64,000 nucleotides of DNA. Origin: Bugula neritina. Its lineage: Eukaryota > Animalia > Bryozoa. Below, in pieces: positions 8,601 through 63,466 of the stretch. Every line of letters begins with the position of its first letter. Within the stretch, counting starts at the first letter, position 1. The notes below the pieces were generated by a model that saw only the letters and a list, made by a program, of their open reading frames with translations, was not told the origin of the DNA and did no database searches. The translations under genes were made by a program, and so were the position numbers. The stretch is taken from the NCBI GenBank assembly GCA_964035545.1, contig OZ037765.1, forward strand, positions 25,295,504 through 25,359,503, in the 5' to 3' direction.

Positions 8601-10449
8601 TTGTGGAGCTTTGGCGTACCTTAGTTTTATATAGGGCAAGAGTATATCAGTTTAAGTCTGTAAGAAGTAATGACTCTAGAAATATTATTACCATGATACC
8701 ATTGATGCGTGACACAATTTATCATGTGTGTGGTAAAACATCAACCGAGAGGTAACAGTATTGGTAAGCAACTAGTAGACGCATGCACCATGGTATGGAA
8801 GATGATTGAATCAACTTGCCTCATAATCTGGATACAATGTAAAAATCTATTAATTCAATTGAAATTAAAATCTTTAACTATGGTAATTGTTTTCTAGGTT
8901 TTCCGCTTATTAGGAACATATCAGATGAGTGTTAAATGCCTGGCATGCAGCCGATAGCTCTATCATTTAGACAGAAAGCTCTCTTGCTCTGCTTACAGCG
9001 CATCAGTTTATGCAACAACCCTAGCCGGCTTAGACTTTCTAGTTGAATAGACTTTCTAGCCGGGCTTTGCATTGTGACAGTGTCACTTTAGAAACCTAAT
9101 AGCCATATCATGATCTGCAATTAAACTATAAACGTGTAATGAGAATGGCTGCTTGCTAGTCACGCTACAGTGAGATGTCAATAATTAACAAAAACTGATA
9201 GCAAGATACCTGAAAAAACTATTTATTACAAGCATAATCTTCATTTTAAACTTAACCAATGATGGTTAATAACTTGTTGGCACAAATAAAATGCTCAGAA
9301 AACAAACTAAAAGAGAAAAGGATAAACTAGCCAGAACTACTTTATGTTTTATATGCATGCAGTAAAATGCAGCATAATATCATACATATAGCTATTATGT
9401 AATAATATTGTGCTGATAAATGTTTTCAAAAAAGGCAGACAACAATAAGTCTACAATAAATAAATAAATAATGTGCTTTATATATAAATAGCACTTAATT
9501 AGGTGATCTATTTTTATAGAGTAACTTTAGTGTAATATTGTAAAACATAAGTTAGCAGCTGAATCTACTTTTGTGCAGCTTGGTCTGTGGTTGAAAAACT
9601 GGCTTACAAAAGAGCTTATTAGTACAATATATTTAGGGGAACATAATTTTGGTGTTGTACACTAGTGGACATTGAAATTGTAAGGCAAGCATTTTTTCAC
9701 ACATTTACATAAAATATATACATTTAATTGAATAATTATTGAGTTTTTGCGAATTAATTAAATTCAAATTGGAAGTAAGCTGTTACCTGGATGTTGGCTT
9801 ATATAGTTATAGGAAAAACTGTCACCATAAAATTAAATTCATAATTTATACCTGCTAGCTTAGCAGTATAAAAATAATTGTTATTTAACCAAATGGTGTT
9901 GTTGTATTACTGCTAGACAGTTGAGAACATGCATTACATAATATTGCTTTCAATTTATTAAAAAGGGTATGTAGAAACACCCTGCATTGCATCCTCTATT
10001 AAACTATTGCCATTGTGTAGAAAAATACATAAATGTACACTTACCAAATTTTCCTTCAAGTTTTATTATCCACAAAATCAATAACATTTGTTTATACTCA
10101 GCGAAGTTTGTATTCCGAGTATAGAGAAAAAGGTTTACTGTAATGATTACTACAGCTTACCCACGTACACACTGTTGATCATATGGAATTATCCCATTAT
10201 AATACTATGCTTGGCAATGCCCATCAATACAAGCCTGCTCACAAAGATAAATGTATAAGCGCAACAAAAGAAAATAGTACTTTTTATCATTACAAATTTC
10301 AATTAGCAAAAAGAACTTATTGCAATTTAATAACAAAAAAAGTAAAATTTTGTACAATTTTAAAACGGAATATTTACAATTTTGATTTAAATGTGTCTTA
10401 GATCATTATTTTCAAGAAAAATAAGGGAACTTTGATGAATTCATACTCA

Positions 10450-10590
10450 GTTGCTAAGCAAATGTGGGAAGTTGAATAGGCAGTATACGTTAATATAATT
10501 TGCTAAAGTAGTATTAGCACGACCAATCAAAAGCTTCTTACTATATGGTTGCTACACTCCTTGGTAACAAAACAAAGAGGATCATAAACA
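10450..10590 (+). promoter_or_regulatory. Putative TEKT2 promoter with RFX X-box-like and forkhead-like motifs
   Basis: GTTGCTAAGCAAA (10450), CCAAT (10523), GTTGCTAC...CCTTGGTAAC (10548-10568), AAACAAA and TAAACA (about 10570-10590). Followed by a candidate non-coding exon ending AAG|GTATAG near 10694. Confidence 0.5.
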
Positions 10591-11357
10591 GCCGTACTTC
10601 TATATCAGTATATGCATTTCGGTTAGAAGTTCAATAGTTTCTAAATTGCGGAGAAGTGCTAGAAGCAAATTTGAATTTAAGAAAATTCTAAAAGGTATAG
10701 TACTACATCATATTTTTTAAATCTAAAATTGCAATTGTTTAAAATTACTGCAGATAAGTTACTGTTAGTTAAAACAAGTATTTCCACAAGCGATCAGGAT
10801 GGATGCCATTACATTTACTACTAGTCTTAGATTTAAACTAGCATTACACTTACAGTTTACATTCGGCTGGACAATTATGCAATCACTGACTTACATCATT
10901 ATTATTATAATTTATAGTTTAATTCTTACGGCATGGTGATTTTCTAAAACTGTGTCAAAGCAATATTAGAGTGATTGACACGCTCATATTGATTGCCAAA
11001 CGAAGTTGACCGTTTTCGCCACAAGTTTAAACCCGAGATTGCAGGCAATAGATTAACATATCATCTAGACTTTTTCAAAACACTTCTTTTTACATACGCA
11101 CCAAGTTTTAAATTCATACGAAATAAATTAATCACCTGATCATAAAGCTGAGTAATGGGAGACAGCAATTATATAATGAACTTGTTGCTACTATTCAGTG
11201 ACACTAAATTATTATAATATTGCAAATAATTATGTTATTTTATTTAAAACTTATACTTGAAATAAATCTTTAATAAAATCATGCAATTCTGCTCTTCAAG
11301 ACTACATCATAACTCAAAACCTGCCTCAATTGAGAAATAAATCAATTTGTAGCATAG

Positions 11358-13296
11358 ATGGCTTCCCATGTGAAGAATGCTGTAAGATACCAGCCAGCTG
11401 ATTGGTTTACTTCTAACTATACTATATCTACGAATGCTGAACGTCAAAGAGAAGGCTCTTTTCAAACCAGACAAGAGGCAAGATTTCTGAGTAACGAGAC
11501 TGACAGCAAAACCAAGTGGGATCAGTATGACAACAACACCAGACTTGCTGATAGAGTTGATGAAATTAGAAAATGGAAGGAAATATTGGAGAAGAGTTTG
11601 GCTGATTTAGATAAGGAGGTAAAGAATAATATTGGGTTTCCCAGTCGATTAACATCTTATGTTATGTATTGTGAGTGTTTTTATTAGAATTATTAGTCAA
11701 AAGTTTAACTTTTTTGTAGATTGCTGATTTAACAGAAGCTAAAGACCTGACAGAAATATCATTGCAAGAAAAAGAAGTTCCACTAGATGTCTGCATTGAA
11801 AATCTAACCACCAGAGAAGGTCGACAAAGCATTGATCTTGTTCAAGATGAAGTAGAACACCAGCTGCACAAGGTACATTAACATATGTACTATTCTACAT
11901 TGTGGTGAGGCATATAATTATACCAACTTTGAGCTCCAATATAATTCTAATACTTTTTCAACTACAAACTATTTTTATTTTGCTAGGAAATGGAAGTCAT
12001 CAACAAAATTAAAGAAAAACTGCAACAAAAAGTAGATGAGTCATTTGAGCAGTTATGTCTTCTTCAAGAAGCCAGGCAGCAAGTTCTCTTGGACCTGCAA
12101 GATAAGAACATAGCCTTAGGTATTGATATTGACCAATATAATCTGACTGAAAACTCACCTGGTATCAGCTACAAGCCTAACCCGACAAGAGTACCCAAAG
12201 GGTAAGTAATTTTGTAGCCAACAAGTAACAACTTCTACATATGAACCCTGGTGACCACACAGTCAGTCAGTATGTAACATATAAACACATTCGAATATAA
12301 TCTTTTTCCAGGAGCACAACCCCACAACAGTGGGAAGACTTTAGCCGCTACAACAAAGAGCGGGCAGATGCTGAAATGAGATCGTCTACTCGACTGAGGG
12401 AAGCCATTCACCACACTCTCCAAGAATGCGACAATGACTTGGAGGCTCAGAAATTGGGTACAGAATATGCTTTCCGCAAGAGGATTCATGAGACTGAAAG
12501 AGCCAAAAAGGAACTCGAATGGCAAAAAGCTAACGTAAGTGAAAAACACAACTTTATTGCAATTTTAAATATAATGCTAACATTATGAAACTGAATTAAA
12601 TCAGCTTAGTAATAGTGAGAAATTAAATAGCAATATACCAATCATTGATATGAAATAAATGAAGTGGAAAGAATTCCATGCTCAATAAACTAATTAGACA
12701 TTTATATGTAGACGGAAAAGGAGATTGCAGAGATGGAGGAAGACATACGGAATCTCGAACAGAAGATCCGAGACAAGATCAACCCTACTAAGTTGGCTCA
12801 GACAAGACTTGAGAATAGAACTTACAGGCCAAATGTTGAGTTGTGTAGAGACGAGCCACAATACGGCCTGACCGATGAAGTCAAACAGCTGGCTGCGACA
12901 AAAGCAGCTCTTGAAGAGAAACTGCGGCAAGCTCAGTAAGAACGTTTATCATGTTTACAGTGTGAACATTCAACATAAAACCTCTAGATTGATGTACAGC
13001 GAATATAACTTGAAAGAACATAGAGTTATTGTCTAGGTTCATGATAATTTGATAGTACTTATATTGCTTTATATATTGGCATTTTAATTTTTTTTCCTTC
13101 TAGACATGGCTTAGACTGTCTGCAAAAGCAGTTGCAGAGAATCAAGGATGATTTGGACGTCAAGAATAACTCTCTGATGCTCGACAACAGATGTATGGCT
13201 TCCAGAGAGAAGCTAAATGTCCGTCCCAAGACTGCTACTGATAATAACCGAGCGTTAACCGGAATACACCGCGAGAGGTCCATGTATTTAGCTTAA
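11358..13296 (+). CDS. TEKT2: Tektin-2 (tektin B1), 6 coding exons, about 422 aa
   Basis: Exons 11358-11618, 11720-11872, 11987-12201, 12312-12534, 12712-12935, 13104-13296 join in frame (1269 nt) with GT-AG introns. Tektin signature RPNVELCRD. N-terminus RYQPADWFTSNYTISTNAERQR and FEQLCLLQEARQQ match TEKT2. Confidence 0.93.
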
Positions 13297-14265
13297 ATCA
13301 GCTGTCTTCATAAATATGCTTTTAAAAAGGACTTTGATAGAATAAGGGTACCTACAAAGGTAACATATAATTTGCTCAAAAATTGATTTTAGAATGAAGG
13401 AAATAAATGACTAACTCATTTTAAAAGGTTTTGTCATACATATATTAAAAACTACCAATGGACTGTGTAAATAATCTCGTGCATTTAGGTAGTTTAAATT
13501 TGATAATCTATTCCAAAATGAATGGCAGATACTTTATAAACAGTGTAACGCTACAACTGTGCGCCCAGTACGAAGGGCTTGCTATTCAGCAAATAAAATG
13601 AGCTACTGTTATGTTGCGACGATTTTGATGTTTTCTGATACTTTAATGTTACTTTCCACTTTTCATGATTTCCGACATTGTGTTTATTTATTCTGTAGGA
13701 TAACATAATAATATTTATCATAATAATATAAACGAAGTACTAATATATCTATTTGCTTATAAAAAGTAATGCCTTATTGTGGAAATGGTAACTGTGCACC
13801 AAAATATATCATTATTTTCAAAACAACACGATTTAATCATTAACCGATAAACAAAATATTACCAAAACATACAACTAAGAGAGCAATAAGTAGACTAGTA
13901 CTATTTTATAACAACCCAACCAGACATTATTGATGTGGACTATGAGTGACTATAATGGCTTTTTATACCCTTTAGTGATGCTAATCTAATAATCAATGGC
14001 ACAATGATACACCACAGAATTTTTTTTTATATTGAATTAGCAGTTGAAATGTGCTGCACTATCAGATTTAGGGCTAGGACTACATGATGACAATATAATA
14101 TATACAGTATTCTTTGAATACAAAATATATTAATAAACAATAATATACTTCATCATGTACAGCAGTGAGTAAACATGAATATCATGATTCTTTCATTCAC
14201 CAGTTTACCATTTTATGCAGGAAGTTACTATCTTGAAATGAGAGGGCTTAGAAAGTAACTGCCGT

Positions 14266-37590
<23,325 letters not shown>

Positions 37591-42877: not shown

Positions 42878-44828
42878 AGTCTACTGTTTCATAACCATTG
42901 ATCTCAACCAACTGTTTTATAGACATTTACTATTAAAATATCACTCAGCATATTGGCAGTTTTTTACATCAATTTTAAAAAATATTGAGCAGCTGTTGAT
43001 AAAATAGATACCTGCACATTTTGTTAGATAGCTGAAATATTATTGGCTTTTGATGAGCATGACTCATTTCAAAATTTGTCCAAGTGCCTGTTCAATGCCG
43101 AGGGAATTCAACAACTCGTAATTTATCTGAAGAATTCGATAGAAGCATGAATTAATCACTACTCTTGAAAAATTACGAAGCTCTTTAATATTCAGAATAA
43201 TTTTTGAAATGATATATAACTTTGTTGTCTTATAATCAATTTCTTTGCAATTCAATTTTAATTTGGTTTGCCATATGACAGTCTTACAGCTTATATTTTG
43301 TACATAGGTATAGTTCATTCATAATTTATAGCTGAGCATAATAATGCTGCTTATAATAAGTTTTTTACTACAATAAATTGTTTATTGCACTAAACTTAGG
43401 TTTAGGCAACCAAATCATAAAATAGACATTTTCACATATTACAAAGTGGGAGCAATTACTTGACTAGTTAATAATAGTTGATAACAATTATTTCATTTAT
43501 TTATTAATAACTATAGCTTTTAGAACTTCCCCCCCCCCCCAATTATGGCCATATACATGACAAAACCAGCGTTGACCTAAATAATTACAATTAAGGATCA
43601 TAGCTCCTAGTTTAGAGTTATGTAAGTTGATACATGCAACAATTGCAATATGTTTCTTCATAAGGCAGCTACTATAGGGGAAAACAATTTCATAGTGTTA
43701 AAAACTTGGCAAAGTAATATCAAAGCTTTTTATGCCTTCAAAATAGACTGAAAAATTTGAGCACTAGCTATCATACACCTATTTTAATCAATTATAAGAA
43801 CACTCATTGTTATTGAGTAAAGATATTAGGATTAACCACAGTAACTATAATAATAATATTATTATTATATTTGTAGCCTGTAGGTACTAGGTACCGTGCC
43901 TAAGCCTGCATATAATATATGAATAATAATATCATGAAATACCGGCGTTATAACATTATTATAATGCTGGTATTTCATGTTGGAGAGTTATCTCTCTAAT
44001 TGGAGGCTAGTGTGATTGGCTCCCCGCACACATTACTAATTGTTTCTATAAAGTTTCTGTAGAAGCTTCCTATTTCCGGTTTTCGCCCGACAGTACACCA
44101 GACTCAAAAATAAAACGGATTAATAATTGTTACATTTGCTGCAATTATAGTCAGCATTAAAAATCTATACACTTGTAGAATTTCTAGTTAGTTTGTGTTG
44201 ACTGCCCAGAGTCCACAAACTACCACATATAAATCTGGTTAGTATAATTATGAAGCTTTATGCAAATGTCTAACTAAACCTTTAACAATATGAATAACTT
44301 ATTAACTATAAGTATAACTATTACTATTACTACTATTAGTATTAGTATAACATTAACTGAGTTTCAGTTTAAGTTGAACTTAAAGTTCATCATAACTTCA
44401 TCATTGTCATTATAATTATTTTCATTAAATTTATTTCTTATGATTTAGATTTTAGACTATTAGTATTATTGTCAAATTTAATTAAATTTAATATTATTAT
44501 TATAATTATAACTATCATTATGATTAAATTTAAAATTTTAATATCAGTAGTTATGTTATTATTATAATCTAAACTACAGTCGCGATCATAATGATATTGA
44601 TAATGATAGTTTTTATGAAGGGTATTTATATTTTGGTTGATCTTCTAATAATAATAATAATAATAATAATTAATATTCATATTCATATTGCCTATGGTAT
44701 TTGGTTAACAATAGATTTATTGTAGTTATTATATATAAGGCATATATATTTATGGCTATTCAAGACCGCTTTGTATTTTTTACATGGTGGTTATTTTTTT
44801 TTGTTGGATGCGTTGGCATAAGTGTTAT

Positions 44829-45180
44829 TGTAGTAATTTGTGCAATTACTGAGCGTGAGTTATTTACTTGCGTATAGTTAGCTGGTTATTCTGTTATCAA
44901 TTACTAAGGTAGCTGTCGAGTAATTATATTTATTATCCACAATAAAGCATAAACCAAACATCACATCAAATTATCCTATACAAGAGTCAACTACTAACAC
45001 ATGTTACTACTACAAGCCTCCGCTTACAACAACGTGATATAATGTTAATAACCCGGGAAGTGTCACGTGAATCGGAAGCATATCTTCCGGAGCTGCTAAT
45101 TGGTTGCTACATAAGAGTCTAAGTATTCCAAGAGTAGGGAGAGGGCGATTCCTGTATTTGTACTTGCACTACTCACTACA
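44829..45180 (-). repeat. 3' LTR
   Basis: No differences from 49740-50091 seen on reading both copies. Confidence 0.96.
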
Positions 45181-45191
45181 CCGTCCCCCCC
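45181..45191 (-). promoter_or_regulatory. Polypurine tract (GGGGGGGACGG)
   Basis: Directly abuts the 3' LTR on the element strand. Confidence 0.85.
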
Positions 45192-45470
45192 AGCAGAAAG
45201 CCCTACTTTCTGATAACACAATAAAAAAACATAATGAAAAACCATACAATAATCCAAAAAGAAAAACATACATAAGTAAACCCACAAAGAGTAAGAAAAG
45301 AAATAGTTGAGCACGACAACGTTTACATTAGAAGACAACAGGGTGATCGATCACACACATCTAGTCAGCTATTAAGAGAGAGGGTGCTTACCAGCACGCG
45401 GGCCAATGTCGGAGCGCTCGTCACATTCCAAACGAGTATCGCTCAACGAAGGTGCCTACCCCAGGCATTC

Positions 45471-46237
45471 TCATTGGTTGGGCTCTGATTCTTGTAGCGA
45501 CCGTGCTCGGTGTCGAGCCTGTCGGGCACGTAGCCGCCTCTTCAATCGCCCCACTGAGTCCTTCAACTGGTATAGACCTGTCGTCGTATCCAGCAGGTCA
45601 GGGGCAAGTTGTGTGAACTCGGCTTGCAGTCTTAGAAGCCGCTCTTCTACGTTAGCCAGCTGGCTAGGCCTTGGTGGGGTTGTAGTGGTCTCCGTTAGAC
45701 GGGATATGGTTGTTTCTTCTACTTCTGGGGTGTTGCTAGGGTTGACGGGGGTAGGAGGAGGGCCCTGAACCATAGGGGACTTATGGCGGGCAGATAGTAG
45801 CAGTACGTGAAACCCTGACGTTAGTGCGGCCAGGGTGATAGCCTTCCTGATGACTGGCTTGATGGCATCCAGGTATAGGGGGAAACTGTCTTCATCAACA
45901 GTGTGGTTCTCTCCGGCGAAGCAGCTTAGCTTATGTACTGTCACGGGATACGGGTAGACGTCGTGGAACCCGCAGGGACAGAAGTGGAGTAGGAAATGGG
46001 CGTCTACATGTAAACGCAGGGAGCGGTGCGACGGGCACTCCTCAAAGCAGACCTGGCAGGTTCGGTGTGGTCCACTGGGTCCCCAGGCTTCTTCAATTCT
46101 CCTCTCTGTCGTGGGTGACACCCAACGGTGTCGTCGGCGGAGTACTACGGGTATGCCATTCTCCATTACAGGCTCTTCTTCCATAGACAGAGAGGTTGGC
46201 TGGTCCCGTGACCGGGAGGTGGTCACTCGAGTGTGAT
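45471..46237 (-). CDS. Retroelement ORF3: C2H2 + C2HC zinc fingers and C-terminal coiled coil (main exon of a probably spliced gene)
   Basis: CQVC-x12-H-x3-H, then CPC-x12-H-x3-C, a Pro/Thr-rich linker, a leucine-rich heptad region and the basic tail LKRRLRARQARHRAR. Preceded by the acceptor CTACTCTTTCAG| (AG at 46239-46238). First in-frame ATG within the exon is at 46184. Confidence 0.8.
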
Positions 46238-46546
46238 CTGAAAGAGTAGCAGTGTTAAAGATTATACACTGAGGCACCGTCGGCGTATACAGCCTGACCG
46301 GTACTCTGTTCAGTTACACTCGTGAGATTCAGGCTAATGAATAGTTGATGGAGAACACACTCGCTATGACAGATTATTTAAAATCAAAGTCGACGTGTAT
46401 TCCCACCACTGTTTATCATTATCGAATCTCCAGCTAGCTAGTGTAGCTAAGCTGACTGATGCAGTCTAGTTATCGTACCAAAAACATAATTAACTCACCC
46501 TTCGATCCAGAATAGTAAGACATTTTGGAATGAGAGTGGTAACTGA

Positions 46547-48805
46547 TTACTGTTTACTGGCACGTCTACTCTCGACTGCATCAACATAGGAAAAGACCGG
46601 ACAGCGTGGTTGTGAAACGTGACTAGGGCTTTTCACTTCCAGCGGATGAATCTCGTGTGAGATTCCGCCGAGGCAAAAGTTGAGATTCTCGTGGTGATCA
46701 CAACTCCCACGGCTCTTTGCCTGCTTTCCCATGCGAGGCCTCTCTAGACTTTTGTTACTGCCGCTTATACCGCGGTCACGTACACAGTCTCTGAGACACG
46801 CTGGAAGTTGCCTAGTGTGTGGTCCTGGTCCTATGTTGGTATCTCCTTGCGGAGCCCCTCCCACGGGGGGTTTTTGCACTTCCGGACCTGTTTCTGGTTC
46901 CGGAAGTGGTGATGATGGCAGGCTTGACGTTGGGGGCGGTGAGCGCACTTTCAAGGACGGAAGTGGCCTTTCTCGCCTCGCCAAGTCTTCCTGACGTGTC
47001 ATGGAGGTGTTTCCGGCCAGGTTGACAGTCTCCGCCTGCCGAGACCTTCTCGCACAATGCGTCTGCCGCCCCGCTTCACCAGGGAGACGGCTATGCTTGT
47101 TGGTCTGGCAGACTTTGCACCGTCTCACTCTGCGTCGGATATCCCGTTCCATGTTAGGCCAGTACCACCGGAGTTGTAGCTTAGTGACCACCCCTTGGAC
47201 TCCTCCGTGAGTCTCCTCGTGGGTGTCTTGTATCAACTTCCGGCGGATGGCAACTGGGCAGACAACCCTCTTCCTGGCTGGCTGTCTGCTGTTGGCGGCC
47301 AAGGTCATGGTTAGCAGACCATCTGGCCCGACCCGCAGAGAGCTCCAACGTTGACAGTACAGCCGTAACTCGGCGCATCCCTGTCGCCGTTGTGTACTAC
47401 TGGGTCGTCGCCCCTCCTGTTTCGCTCGGTACACGTCGGCTACCACCCCAGGAAGGCATTCCTGGAGCTTCGGCAGCTCCCTAACGTTACCAGCCCATAC
47501 AGGTTTGGCGCGGAGGCTCTGGGCAGCCTCCGGGGGCGTGTCAGCCCTCTGTTGGAGTAGCTGAGCAGGGGCGGTCCTCGCCGCCCGTGGTACCTCACGG
47601 CAGCCTGCTCTATTTAGGCGGGCTCCGTGGTCTGTGTGGCTGAACGCCTCACTGTACCCATGTGGCAACCTAGCCATAGCCTGGCGCTTCCCGTTGCCTG
47701 CGCAGCCACGCGTCCCTGAAGGAGGGGAGGCGTGGGTTGGGACGGTCCTCCGCCCTCGAGACGGGCTCTGCTGAGGACCTTCCGTCGTAGCTCCCGACGA
47801 CGGCCCAATGGCTTCCTCCTGGACAGGATGGAAGCGACCCAGCATGGATCTGGGTGGTAGGTCTACTGTCTCTGAGAAGGGGTTGACACACTGCACTGAG
47901 ATCTCTCCTTGCCCCGTGAGCCGGCTAAAACTACGGGCAAGTTGGACTCTCGAGTGCGTACTTTCGACAACTCCCAACTTAGAGGTTTGGCCACCGTCTA
48001 CCTTGCAGCGGACGGTAGCCCGGGAGTGGCCTGGTATAGTACAGCTCCGTACTACCTGCACTGCTCCCGCTAGAGGACGACCAAACTTATCGACACAAGC
48101 GAGCTCCTTGTCGCCCATGATCATCGCAGATTTACTGAAATCGATGCGACAACCGTGTCGTTGTAAGAATGGCATCCCGAGGATAGCATCCTCGTTGAGC
48201 TGCCCGACGATAAACGTCTCTTGGATGGCCTGGTTACGGATGTAACCAGTTAGCTCAATAATGCCGTAGAAGGGAATGCACGACCCGTCTGCCAGGGTGC
48301 CATGATCCCCCTCATACGGTGCCAACCCGTCCTTGACCTTAGCGCTGAGGGTGTCAAAGAACTGACGGCTAAGGAGGTTGGTGGTGCAGCCGGAGTCCAG
48401 GAGGAAGTTGGCAGGCTTGCCGGCTAGCTTCCCTGGTAGGAAGTAGCTACTTCCGTGTGGCTGCAATTGAGTGTGCCGTGGTTGCACCTCCCTCGCTGTG
48501 GGTCGAGGGGTCCACGGTTGGCGGCGACTATTGACCAGCTGCCGAGGTTGGGGCGGTACACCTTGCGGCGCTTGTACCGTTTCCCTCGCAGGCTCTGTGG
48601 TCAACCGTCTGCCGGCTCCGTGTTGGTGCCGGAGTGGCGTAGGGGACCCAGGCGGCGAGTGGCTTGAGCCTACTTGCCGCGGGGGTCGCCACTTCACAGC
48701 ATCTCCGCGCGGCGCCCAGCGGGGCGACAGACGCGCGGGCCTCCCTGGGTGATTCACAGACGGCCCGCAGGAGGTGGGAACATCTGCGGGCCGGGGTAGT
48801 TTAAC
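46547..48805 (-). CDS. Internally deleted pol: aspartic protease + integrase HHCC finger; no RT, RNase H or DDE core
   Basis: Open frame, -1 relative to gag. LLDSGCTTNLL (about 48400) and ILGMPFL protease motifs. HEETHGG...YWPNM...CKVC integrase zinc finger (about 47225-47108). No YxDD, RNase H or D,D35E motifs in the translation. Confidence 0.85.
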   Translation of the reverse strand, partial: VKLPRPADVPTSCGPSVNHPGRPARLSPRWAPRGDAVKWRPPRQVGSSHSPPGSPTPLRHQHGAGRRLTTEPARETVQAPQGVPPQPRQLVNSRRQPWTPRPTAREVQPRHTQLQPHGSSYFLPGKLAGKPANFLLDSGCTTNLLSRQFFDTLSAKVKDGLAPYEGDHGTLADGSCIPFYGIIELTGYIRNQAIQETFIVGQLNEDAILGMPFLQRHGCRIDFSKSAMIMGDKELACVDKFGRPLAGAVQVVRSCTIPGHSRATVRCKVDGGQTSKLGVVESTHSRVQLARSFSRLTGQGEISVQCVNPFSETVDLPPRSMLGRFHPVQEEAIGPSSGATTEGPQQSPSRGRRTVPTHASPPSGTRGCAGNGKRQAMARLPHGYSEAFSHTDHGARLNRAGCREVPRAARTAPAQLLQQRADTPPEAAQSLRAKPVWAGNVRELPKLQECLPGVVADVYRAKQEGRRPSSTQRRQGCAELRLYCQRWSSLRVGPDGLLTMTLAANSRQPARKRVVCPVAIRRKLIQDTHEETHGGVQGVVTKLQLRWYWPNMERDIRRRVRRCKVCQTNKHSRLPGEAGRQTHCARRSRQAETVNLAGNTSMTRQEDLARRERPLPSLKVRSPPPTSSLPSSPLPEPETGPEVQKPPVGGAPQGDTNIGPGPHTRQLPACLRDCVRDRGISGSNKSLERPRMGKQAKSRGSCDHHENLNFCLGGISHEIHPLEVKSPSHVSQPRCPVFSYVDAVESRRASKQ

Positions 48806-49704
48806 CCTGGTGGGAGCTGAGGGCAGTTTCTCTGGAAATGTCCTGGCCTTCCGCATTCCCAGCAGAAGTGGTGCCCCATGCCTGGTGATTGTACCTGCGG
48901 CCCGCAAGGCTCACGGGCAGTATCTACCTGGCTTGGGGAGGCTAATGTGGTGACCAGTTTATCTAGCATGTCAGTCATCTGTGAGATTTTTGACGCTAGT
49001 GACATCTGGTTCACACTAGCCACCGCGGAGGGTTCCGCATTTAATTCGGTGTGAGCAGTAGAGTGCTCCGTGGTCACCTGGCGGGAGGCCACGCGGTTGC
49101 GGTGCATATGAGTCGCCAAGAGGTAGGCTTCTCCCACCGCAAGTGCATCTTCGACTGTGGTGACTCCCCTCGCTTGGAGTTGATGGTGGAGCCCCAAGTC
49201 GTTGATAGACTGCACGAAGGCATCATAAGTATACCTCTCACGGTGTACCGGAGGCAGATCGCGGAATGCAATCTGCGCTAGTGGGTACACCGTGGCAGCG
49301 TGCTCTTCTAGTGACGTGTGAGGATCACGCCGCATCCTCTGTAGACGGGCCCGCGCATCTATGGGAGAGATGCCAAAACGGGCCCGCAGGGAAGCAAAGA
49401 TTCCGTCTATGTCAGGTCCCGCTCCGTACGGCTTAGCTTTGCCCGTCAGCGCCATCCTGAGCTTGAGCAGCGCCACCCTTGGCGGCCACTCTGAAATCTC
49501 CATCACATCTTGGAATATTTGGATAAACTGCTCCACTGCTTCTTCGCCTGCGAAGGTGGGCGCCTTCATCCGGTATCTGTCTTCACCATACTCTCTAAGA
49601 ATTCTCACTTCTTCATCTAACACCACTGGTTCCACAGGTATATCAACATTATCTCTCTCACCTTCATTCAGTGGAATGGGTAGCTCCGTGCCGTCTTCTG
49701 CCAT
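48754..49704 (-). CDS. gag: Gag (capsid + CCHC zinc knuckle)
   Basis: ATG at 49704 just after the PBS. Gypsy-type capsid region (KAPTFAGEEAVEQFI...LRMALTGKA). CWECGRPGHFQRNC knuckle. Confidence 0.92.
   Translation of the reverse strand: MAEDGTELPIPLNEGERDNVDIPVEPVVLDEEVRILREYGEDRYRMKAPTFAGEEAVEQFIQIFQDVMEISEWPPRVALLKLRMALTGKAKPYGAGPDIDGIFASLRARFGISPIDARARLQRMRRDPHTSLEEHAATVYPLAQIAFRDLPPVHRERYTYDAFVQSINDLGLHHQLQARGVTTVEDALAVGEAYLLATHMHRNRVASRQVTTEHSTAHTELNAEPSAVASVNQMSLASKISQMTDMLDKLVTTLASPSQVDTAREPCGPQVQSPGMGHHFCWECGRPGHFQRNCPQLPPGLNYPGPQMFPPPAGRL
48761..48805 (-). promoter_or_regulatory. Programmed -1 ribosomal frameshift signal
   Basis: G_TTA_AAC in the gag frame (48805-48799), 5-nt spacer, perfect 10-bp stem CGGCCCGCAG / CTGCGGGCCG with a 13-nt loop. 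Confidence 0.8.
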
Positions 49705-49720
49705 GACTGCTATACGCAAG

Positions 49721-49738
49721 ATCCCACTGCTGCCACCA
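49721..49738 (-). promoter_or_regulatory. Primer-binding site, tRNA-Leu type
   Basis: TGGTGGCAGCAGTGGGAT, 1 nt inside the 5' LTR; complementary to a tRNA-Leu-like 3' end ATCCCACTGCTGCCA-CCA. Confidence 0.85.
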
Positions 49739-49739
49739 C

Positions 49740-50091
49740 TGTAGTAATTTGTGCAATTACTGAGCGTGAGTTATTTACTTGCGTATAGTTAGCTGGTTAT
49801 TCTGTTATCAATTACTAAGGTAGCTGTCGAGTAATTATATTTATTATCCACAATAAAGCATAAACCAAACATCACATCAAATTATCCTATACAAGAGTCA
49901 ACTACTAACACATGTTACTACTACAAGCCTCCGCTTACAACAACGTGATATAATGTTAATAACCCGGGAAGTGTCACGTGAATCGGAAGCATATCTTCCG
50001 GAGCTGCTAATTGGTTGCTACATAAGAGTCTAAGTATTCCAAGAGTAGGGAGAGGGCGATTCCTGTATTTGTACTTGCACTACTCACTACA
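49740..50091 (-). repeat. 5' LTR
   Basis: 352 bp, TG...CA ends. Contains AATAAA on the element strand, TCACGTGA, and an inverted CGGAAG/CTTCCG pair. Confidence 0.96.
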
Positions 50092-50143
50092 TTATTCATT
50101 TATACCCAATTATATGTTATTTTTTAGTTGAACTCTTAATAAA

Positions 50144-52736
50144 ATGGCTACGCAATATCGTTTTGGAGTAGAACCAATTACCTGCCACGCCTGGAATAAA
50201 GAGCAAACGCGTAAGTATAGGCTAATTTTAGTGATGTAATTTTAATAAATTCTTTATGTTTATGGAAATATGTAAAAAGCTAAAATGGGCATGATAGTGT
50301 ATTATTAATTTGTATGTTTACAAACTGTGGTATTAATCACTATTATGATAATATATTGTGGCATTGTAGAACTTGCCTTGTCTCCTAATAATGATGAAGT
50401 TCATATTTATGGATTGAGTGGAGGTCAATGGGTGAAGCAGCACACTCTTTCTGAACATACTCAACGAGTGACTGGCATTGACTGGGCGCCTAAAAGTAAC
50501 AGGATTGTGACATGCGGAGTGGTGAGCTATCAGAATATTGTGATGCCTTGTCAGTAATTATCATTTTGTATGCGGTAAATCAATAATGTTATGCTATTTA
50601 TATAACAGGATAGAAACGCCTATGTGTGGACTTTCAATGGGACCAAATGGGAACCAGTGCTGGTTATTCTCAGAATCAACCGTGCTGCAACTTGCGTCAA
50701 ATGGTCTCCTGAAGAGAATAAGTTTGCTATAGGTATTGGTGGCTAATTGGTGTTTGTGGTGGAATTTATTCAACATTTCAAATAACATTTTTGTTAAATT
50801 GTGCATAGTGTGCTGGAGATGAATGTTTGTTAAAGTTTTGCAACATATAATTATAGCATTGGTAAAGGCATATAAAATGTAGTGATGCATCACCACCACA
50901 GCACATTATATTTTGTTACTAATAGGAAGTGGAGCTCGTCTCATTAGCGTCTGCTATTATGAGAGTGAAAACAACTGGTGGGTCTCAAAGCACATTAAGA
51001 AGCCCATCCGATCCACTGTGACCTGTTTGGACTGGCATCCTAACAATTATCTGCTGGCCTGTGGTTCTAGCGACTTCAAAACAAGGTTTGCTTTTTCTTC
51101 ACTTTTTAAAATCTTATTGCAGCTTTGTTGCATTTTGGTAATAATTATTACCTGCAATTTATTTCAGAGTTTACTCTGCGTACGTCAAGGAGATTGAGTC
51201 GAAACCCAGTGCCAATGAATGGGGCAGCAAACTTCCTTTTGCTGCTATGCTTGGCGAATATTCAAATGGTGGAGGTGTGTTTGCACTGTTATATAATCAG
51301 TTTGTATACATCTCAGTTTAGAATGTCCGTAGCGTAGCGTGCTTGCCTTTACGTGCATAGTTATGTAAGATCTTATGCAAGTGTTTGTTTCTATGTAGGC
51401 GGCTGGGTACATGCTGTCTGCTTTTCTTCAAGTGGAACCAAGTTGGCTTGGGTTGGTCACGATTCAAGTATATCTATCGTAGATGCAGCTAATGGCTTCA
51501 AGTATGTTGCACCAATATTGTTTGCTCAATCAAAGAGAGCAGCGCATTATAATTCTAACAGTATGATGTATTTTAAAAGTATTTTTATTAATTTCGTATT
51601 AATGAATGTTTTGCAGTATTTTGACTGCCAAGACAAGCTACTTACCCTTCACCAGCTGTTTGTGGGTTACTGAGAACAGTCTTGTGGTTGGTGGATATGA
51701 TAATCTACCTCTCCTCTTCAACTGCTCTAAAGGTTAATTCAAGTTTTACCTTTTTTAAATTATGAAAATGAATTCGAAAGGTGAGGAATTGAATTTGGCT
51801 TCAGTATTGAAGTGCACCATTTTACGATTCAAGATGTAAGAATTTCTATTAAGTGTGAATGTTTGTAGCGTACAATAAAAAATAATGCTACTCTTACCAG
51901 GTGCCATAAACTTTGTAAATAAACTTGACATTCCAAAGAAATCTGGTGGCGGCAGCATGTCAGCCATGAAGAGATTTCAGCAAATGGATACTCGCGGTCG
52001 AGACAGTGAGGACAGCAAAGTGGTGACTCTTCACCAGAATGCTATTAGGTATTAGAGATCTTGTTACTGTTCATACATCATAGTTTCTGTTCTAGTGTGT
52101 CCTACAAACACCATTTGTGTAGTGCTAATGGTGATCATAGTTATGGCTAGATTAGTAACCGTGTTGGTGTTATTGCAGGCAGCTAACTCTGCACAGTGGT
52201 AGCAAGAGCTCTTGTGCTAAATTTGCTTCCGGTGGCAATGATGGACAAATCCTTGTATGGGATATCAGAGTAAGTACTATATTTAAACTTTACTTTGCTG
52301 CTTGGCACATTTATGTAAGTTTAAGACTTTATATAAATTGTAACCAAAATAATCTCCTATACACTCACCCAAGGATATATTTTAATATTCGACAATACAA
52401 AAAGAAAATCATGATCTCTTTCCCAAAATTATTATTGAAGTATTCAACTTTTCATAATGCTGAGACACTTTTGCCCTCCTTTATCATATAATTTATTTTG
52501 AGTGCATACACCTTTATACAGTTAATTTTAAGCTTTCTGGTGTTGTAAAAAAATGCTTTGTGGTGTGTGTCAAGATACTACCATTCACTATGCCCATCTG
52601 CTCATTGATAAATTTGTCAAGTGTTTTTGTCACCATGAATACGTTTTATATAACTGTTCATAAAAGTTTCAAGTAATTCTTGCACAACTTGTTTTAGACT
52701 TTGGAAAGTCAGATCGCTGGGCTGACCATTTCATAG
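50144..52736 (+). CDS. ARPC1: Actin-related protein 2/3 complex subunit 1 (p41, WD40)
   Basis: [95 protein letters not shown]; last exon [16 protein letters not shown] introns. Confidence 0.95.
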
Positions 52737-63266: not shown

Positions 63267-63466
63267 ACTCACGCTAGTTTATAGTCACCATCCCCGTAAG
63301 AACCCCTGATGAAAAGGGTTTTTTGTTAAATCGAGCTAAGGACTTATTTCATATGTGGTACAGGAGCAATTATGACTGGATGCTCTTCCTAACGTCACCA
63401 ATGGCCTTTGTTTGGGTTCGAACCCATGACATTGTGCTTACTAGGCAATCACTCTAACCCCTAGAT
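63267..63466 (-). mobile_element. tRNA-derived SINE, copy 2, with TSD
   Basis: Reverse complement aligns with 17604-17800. B-box GGTTCGAACCC. Flanked by the direct repeat CATT(A/C)AAAAGATATAA (63251-63266 and 63467-63482). Confidence 0.85.

Follow-up and report, generated by a model that had tools for sequence, protein, structure and literature searches.

An LTR element with a shortened pol frame in Bugula neritina

The 64,000-nucleotide stretch of Bugula neritina contig OZ037765.1 analysed here (hereafter the window) carries at 44829-50091, on the minus strand, a Gypsy long terminal repeat (LTR) element whose pol frame has lost reverse transcriptase (RT), RNase H and the catalytic core of integrase. 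All genes and domains of the element described below lie on this strand. The 5′ LTR (49740-50091) and the 3′ LTR (44829-45180) are both 352 bp long, start with TG, end with CA and are identical at 352/352 positions, which places their divergence below 0.85% at the 95% level. A 4-bp target-site duplication (TSD), TTAT, flanks the element (44825-44828 and 50092-50095). An 18-nt primer-binding site (PBS) beginning with TGG (49721-49738), which we take to be of the tRNA-Leu type, is located 1 nt internal of the 5′ LTR, and a G-rich polypurine tract (PPT; 45181-45191) abuts the 3′ LTR. Three frames are open: gag, pol and a third open reading frame (ORF3). A preliminary description of the locus had reported identical LTRs, a perfect TSD, PBS and PPT, an intact gag and a pol frame of about 750 codons free of stops, and each of these features was recovered.

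The TG...CA LTRs, TSD, PBS and PPT are those of a Ty3/Gypsy element. Ty3/Gypsy ancestry is also indicated by two complete relatives (P0031 and P0036), in which pol has the order protease, RT, RNase H, integrase, and by the match of a profile of the relatives to the RT of Ty3 Gag-Pol (E 9e-18). The element does not qualify as autonomous, since no RT, RNase H or DDE integrase core of its own was found in its proteins. Its intact gag and protease frame, together with its membership in a multi-copy family sharing a common deleted structure and recent insertions, are those of a semi-autonomous Gag-protease element. However, Gag and protease are not all that is kept: an integrase zinc finger, a linker, an integrase tail, a dUTPase-like domain and ORF3 are also present.

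The gag gene (48754-49704; ATG at 49704, stop at 48754) encodes 316 aa and is 35-57% identical to the gag parts of 8 relatives. Pfam and a search of PDB sequences recognised only its CCHC knuckle (Pfam zf-CCHC); a Catalase match (Pfam E 0.003) was taken as chance. The pol frame (46547-48910) overlaps gag in the -1 frame. It is 787 codons long from stop to stop, about 750 of which follow the likely slip site. At 48761-48805, a slippery-like heptamer (48799-48805), a 5-nt spacer and a predicted 10-bp stem are suggestive of a -1 frameshift signal, with a folding z of only -0.88 for this segment.

Domains and relics of the pol frame

In the pol frame, Pfam recognises Asp_protease_2 (E 6e-5) and Integrase_H2C2 (E 1e-14). 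Even at E up to 1 it gives no match to RVT_1, RNase H or rve, all of which are recovered with this library in the RT-bearing P0031 and P0036. This bears out the earlier claim that RT, RNase H and the integrase core are gone. The aspartic protease (48146-48469, catalytic DSG at 48389-48397) is followed by a predicted dUTPase-like beta domain (47816-48145) and by a decayed relic of the pre-RT segment and of the start of RT (47561-47760), with a median identity of 0.38 between deleted-type and RT-bearing proteins. At junction 1 (47559-47560), RT and RNase H are missing, corresponding to about 420 aa in the family and about 30 aa more in the subfamily of the window. Then comes a conserved linker of about 90 aa (47276-47558), which in complete relatives connects RNase H to the integrase finger, and the HHCC zinc-binding domain of integrase itself (47087-47275; H564, H568, C598 and C601 of the pol frame, Integrase_H2C2). 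Downstream, a decayed start of the integrase core (46995-47086; median identity of 42% to the crown relatives) leads to junction 2 (approximately 46990-46997), where the remainder of the core, an SH3-like domain and a further segment are missing (about 184 + 72 + 29 aa). The frame ends with the Pro-rich C-terminal tail of the former integrase (46547-46993), which is common to the relatives.

The decayed core start and the Pro-rich tail had been read correctly in the preliminary description, as had the succession of protease, RT relic and finger. The finger does not follow the relic directly, because the conserved linker separates them, and the dUTPase-like domain stands between protease and relic. 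A Gmr1-like order, with integrase before RT, was considered as an explanation for the proximity of protease and finger and was rejected, because the relatives hold RT and RNase H between the two.

The dUTPase-like domain, which is present in RT-bearing relatives too, was recognised by its fold. In the structure model (A2), the predicted local distance difference test score (pLDDT) is 70-89 over this domain, and the protease part is of low confidence. Comparison with 3h6x (VIA-align) gave Z 8.4 and a root-mean-square deviation of 3.4 over 96 aligned residues, and ranks 1-6 are all dUTPases. Identity to the top dUTPases is 10-16%, and neither Pfam nor the PDB sequence search matched the domain to dUTPases. 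It is likely non-catalytic. Such a fold after the protease, which Pfam does not detect, may be widespread among the Gypsy elements of invertebrates.

One origin of RT-RNase H loss and stepwise reduction

Relatives were collected by protein searches and a cluster look-up, giving 165 pol-related proteins. By pattern, junction 1 occurs in 30 of them, junction 2 in 47, RT or RNase H motifs in 42 and the integrase core in 23; these counts include near-duplicates from shared clusters and leave out P0336. Identity to the window is 52-66% for the deleted-type proteins and 99% for P0001.

A first tree contained relic columns and was redone without them, on the columns of the protease and dUTPase-like domains; two of the 14 relatives (P0011 and P0307) were dropped for short coverage. 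In this tree, all 13 deleted-type sequences form one clade (support 100/98), nested in 11 RT-bearing sequences. In a second tree, built on the linker and the finger, 27 of the 30 deleted sequences lie on one side of a branch supported at 97/87, and the 21 fully reduced sequences, including that of the window, form a clade (98/97). The root of this second tree depends on a single long outgroup and is treated as unreliable.

The size of the deletions varies in an ordered manner. The proteins affected by the loss of RT and RNase H (about 421 aa) range from a longest form, P0346, through the shorter P0021, P0307 and 26 crown sequences, to the window and P0001, which are the shortest. On the integrase side, the core alone (about 184 aa) is missing in six sequences that keep the SH3-like domain, three in frame and three out of frame. 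The SH3-like domain is also lost in two sequences, and a further 29 aa in 39. In the linker and finger tree, the crown excludes the less reduced forms, a pattern that successive loss would produce. Overall, RT and RNase H were lost once, and pol was reduced by several successive, mostly in-frame deletions. The large in-frame losses proposed initially are real, and they are the sum of several steps rather than two events.

P0336 carries an integrase-core deletion in another sub-lineage, with the finger kept. This deletion appears independent.

Copies of the family and the insertion site

The comparison with read runs covers four of the six listed. Run X1 matches both flanks of the element without difference, at a depth of 120-122. 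A 139-bp X1 contig that is exact across junction 2 has a depth of 4535 compared with 120-122 for the unique flanks, giving about 37 copies, and a neighbouring 103-bp contig gives about 36. Dozens of identical copies are thus present in this sample. The summed contig depth over the interior (10,000-30,000) was not used as a copy number. One X1 flank contig continues for 25 letters inside the LTR with no drop in depth, and the insertion is thus probably homozygous in X1.

In contrast to the window, where the flanks are 5,500 letters apart, one contig of run X4, a related sample, joins both flanks with about 200 letters, so that the site is empty. The X4 flank differs from the window at 39/461 letters. 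X4 nonetheless carries this RT-RNase H fusion in a copy that is longer by 60 letters (a multiple of three) at the junction, and a separate X4 piece covers junction 2. Run X2, an independent plankton run from another study, bridges junction 1 of the window subfamily with 2 differences in 151, and reads almost identical to the element are found in marine plankton runs. In addition, P0001, the protein 99% identical to the window, comes from another collection and has junction 1. Metagenome scans and a viral-contig scan gave no confirmed DNA locus for the relatives.

The insertion lies next to the first coding exons of a host ARPC1-like gene (50149-50557, plus strand; E 1.5e-22 to ARPC1A). The element is antisense to this gene, about 55 bp upstream of its ATG and about 37 bp before a splice-acceptor-like site. 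Judging from these sequence signals, it likely sits within an intron of the 5′ untranslated region.

Differential conservation of the residual pol

Identities were compared by region between hand-curated groups (54 and 43 rows). Between deleted-type and RT-bearing proteins, the median is 0.66 for the protease, 0.64 for the dUTPase-like domain, 0.58 for the linker and 0.65 for the finger. The two relics stand lower, at 0.38 (RT start) and 0.54 (core start). Within the RT-bearing group, the corresponding medians are 0.70, 0.75, 0.71 and 0.76, with 0.68 for the RT start and 0.88 for the core start. Finger and linker are thus about as conserved as the protease, and the two relics decay; residual pol does not evolve neutrally, in line with the selection on it put forward in the preliminary description.

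At the residue level, the protease DSG is kept in 9/9 deleted-type sequences that cover it. The zinc ligands are kept in 128 of the 136 cells of 34 crown sequences (all four in 26/34), and ligands plus nearby Trp/Cys residues are each kept in 91-100% of these sequences, next to a core relic only 42% identical to the window. Neutral drift to the same depth would keep about 40-60% of the ligands, and 8-11 stops would be expected in codons 451-787 at d 0.3-0.5. The retention of the finger beside a decaying core relic points to selection at the protein level.

At the DNA level, 39 of the 40 variants listed were typed, from a set with 500 more. The 21 X1 variant sites listed for 46900-47700 comprise 11 synonymous, 10 missense and no nonsense changes; against about 32% synonymous expected, p is 0.04 and the ratio of nonsynonymous to synonymous rates (dN/dS) is roughly 0.4. 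Among the 12 of 33 indels listed, two at a depth of about 2,000 in X1 fall in the non-coding spacer before ORF3, and the coding ones are single-copy or form a compensating pair.

A zinc-finger-like third frame

ORF3 (45471-46184; open frame 45471-46313) encodes 237 aa from its first ATG. It consists of a Cys/His zinc-finger-like domain, a variable linker and a C-terminal coiled coil formed by a conserved long helix. The residues C42, C45, H58, H62, C68, C70, H83 and C87 are kept in 93-100% of 43 aligned homologues. In total, 106 close homologues were found, and 135 representatives by profile. No significant match was obtained in Pfam, Foldseek (PDB and viral) or VIA, where the rows cover the coiled coil only, and the ESM Atlas returned no result. 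Some distant homologues show weak C2H2 matches.

No transmembrane stretch is present in ORF3 (highest 19-residue hydropathy 1.43), and its Cys/His domain and coiled coil are unlike an errantivirus-like envelope with signal and transmembrane segments. Because the distant ORF3 family is wide, the frame would be inherited, and it is likely an accessory regulator rather than an envelope. The Cys/His domain (45471-46184 in the window; P0177 and P0192-P0290) represents an unnamed family with distant members of up to 596 aa. Some members have two copies of the domain, and most have a C-terminal coiled coil.

Other features of the window

The segment 61062-62064 has long inverted repeats (117 nt, 91%) separated by about 760 nt, together with internal direct repeats, and is likely a miniature inverted-repeat transposable element (MITE) or nested MITEs. 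Two inverted copies of a dispersed repeat of about 100 nt lie 45 kb apart (17637-17737 and 63348-63447). A tRNA-Asn(GTT) gene is found at 21944-22017. A degenerate 9-11-20-nt minisatellite (27592-27813) lies inside an intron-like stretch of what is presumably a DNA polymerase epsilon-like gene.

Discussion

We consider it likely that the element, a young member of an old Gypsy family that is still multiplying and has lost RT, RNase H and the integrase core, produces its own Gag together with a frameshift protein and borrows the missing enzymes. Transposition cannot proceed without RT and a DDE integrase, and an integrase must have acted to leave the fresh TSD; these enzymes would thus be supplied in trans. 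We infer expression, frameshifting, particle formation and a helper as follows. The family would make its own Gag and, by the predicted -1 frameshift, a protein carrying Gag, protease, dUTPase-like domain, finger and tail. Its own or mixed particles, co-assembled with the Gag-Pol of a complete relative, would be matured by the protease of the element, and RT and integrase would come from that relative.

Finger and preceding linker have likely been retained for a function that the fused fragment still performs as a protein. HHCC domains are oligomerisation modules, and the finger might bind the helper's integrase or RNA inside co-assembled particles, a role that we propose tentatively as the likeliest one. 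A further-reaching and rather doubtful proposal is that pol has been whittled down, through the in-frame deletion series, to a catalytically empty adaptor, in which finger and linker behind the protease capture the integrase or RT of the helper into the family's own particles, with the widespread, undescribed zinc-finger ORF3 carried along.

Several observations weigh against selection for the residual pol or against a borrowing family. Three of the 30 deleted sequences (P0303, P0344 and P0336) fall on the RT-bearing side of the finger tree. P0303, P0340 and P0344 are out of frame at junction 2, and P0021 has no finger altogether, yet is in frame, so that at least some copies can do without the finger. 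The complete set of four ligands survives in 32/43 core-less sequences compared with 19/20 core-bearing ones (a count made without curation, with one misfiled outgroup among the sequences), and the deleted clade has the longer branches. Lower ligand retention and longer branches indicate that constraint is relaxed there. Selection at the DNA level is modest, and the four gag variants among those listed are three missense and one synonymous. The protein relatives are open reading frames by construction, so that open frames are over-sampled, and they come with no DNA context; related sequences are not independent events, and their counts overstate independence. X1 may be the source sample of the window assembly. 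Finally, no helper with matching LTRs was identified, the RT-bearing relatives being known as proteins only, and the listed runs include no RNA run and are uninformative on expression.

The same losses can be read as showing that only Gag and protease matter, the frame being kept open for RNA translatability or because a stop would harm the frameshift product, with the finger as a passenger. The in-frame loss of the finger in P0021, the three relatives out of frame at junction 2, the stepwise shedding of pol and an X1 missense/synonymous ratio only modestly below neutral would all fit. However, an open frame alone selects no residues, yet the ligands and nearby Trp/Cys are kept in 91-100% of the crown sequences beside the decayed core relic, and successive deletions trimmed both sides while sparing linker and finger in all relatives seen but one. 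Moreover, in frameshifting elements most ribosomes stop at the gag stop anyway. We therefore regard a passenger finger as unlikely. Repeated refreshment of the finger by recombination with co-packaged complete elements could account for P0303 and P0344, which are unresolved among the RT-bearing sequences of the finger tree; the fully reduced sequences nevertheless form their own clade on linker and finger, in agreement with the protease tree, which makes refreshment very improbable.

Persistence of the family through host use of its Gag or ORF3 product would find a precedent in zebrafish BHIKHARI Gag, as cited in a review (PMC13269885), and ORF3 is conserved in its 106 homologues. On the other hand, the copies are numerous, young and still inserting, the site is empty in X4, and no fixed orthologous copy was seen; selfish spread suffices, and we give host use very little credence. 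Finally, a single copy damaged by deletions after insertion, or an assembly artefact, can practically be dismissed: junction 2 is found in about 37 identical copies, junction 1 is bridged in the independent run X2 and present in P0001, and these shared junctions refute it. That the element belongs to a stable lineage, as first proposed, is thus upheld by junctions that are not unique to the window copy and by the single clade of divergent relatives.

Non-autonomous ATHILA elements with a pol deletion of about 3 kb are abundant in Brassicaceae (934/2,322) and recently active (bioRxiv 10.64898/2026.03.20.713144). Deleted ATHILA resembles the present family in being Gypsy with gag and protease and with RT, RNase H and integrase deleted, and often has an extra frame of unknown function after pol. 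In contrast, ATHILA is a plant case in which one deletion that includes integrase occurs in several families, whereas the family described here is animal, with one origin of RT-RNase H loss and successive deletions, and keeps the integrase finger and the dUTPase-like domain. The wheat semi-autonomous RLG_Sabrina_SA (PMC9744471) and RLG_Quinta (PMC11302176) are long-lived families. In these and in TR-GAG (PMC13570524), as here, the proposal is that proteins from an intact Gag or Gag-protease frame are combined with RT and integrase from a partner. Their partners were identified by shared PBS and LTR ends, whereas the RT-bearing relatives of the window family are known as proteins only. In the beet families (PMC13570524), extra pol domains are partly decayed and patchy, unlike the finger conserved across our clade.

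In bdelloid LTR retrotransposons, a dUTPase is placed between protease and RT, and the ORF3s are diverse and not of the envelope kind (PMC5408684). The window family shares the position of the dUTPase-type domain and a non-envelope ORF3, and one non-autonomous bdelloid family likewise keeps its own ORF3. Unlike the bdelloid dUTPase, the domain of the window was seen by fold only and is likely not an enzyme, and its zinc-finger/coiled-coil ORF3 is not among the ORF3 types described in the accessible part of that source. Our literature search, which left most subscription papers, repeat databases (e.g. Repbase, which may already contain such a family) and supplements outside, found no animal family in which the integrase finger is retained and the core is gone, and the accessible parts of PMC3286476 and PMC3104679 contain nothing on a kept finger.

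Relative to the semi-autonomous lifestyle already known from plants, three things are new: the animal host, an integrase finger conserved as an orphan, and a series of reductions that is still visible. Long-lived semi-autonomous Gag-protease families have been described mainly from plants; the present family adds one from an animal, with surviving intermediates from which the sequence of pol losses can be read. It further brings to light a cryptic dUTPase-like domain and an ORF3 family not annotated so far, both in these Gypsy elements of invertebrates. This natural deletion mapping singles out finger and linker as kept without the catalytic core, so that non-catalytic roles of Gypsy integrase and the recruitment of helper enzymes by a parasite become directly testable. 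If pol has indeed become an adaptor, the family would have a protein-level way of stealing enzymes.

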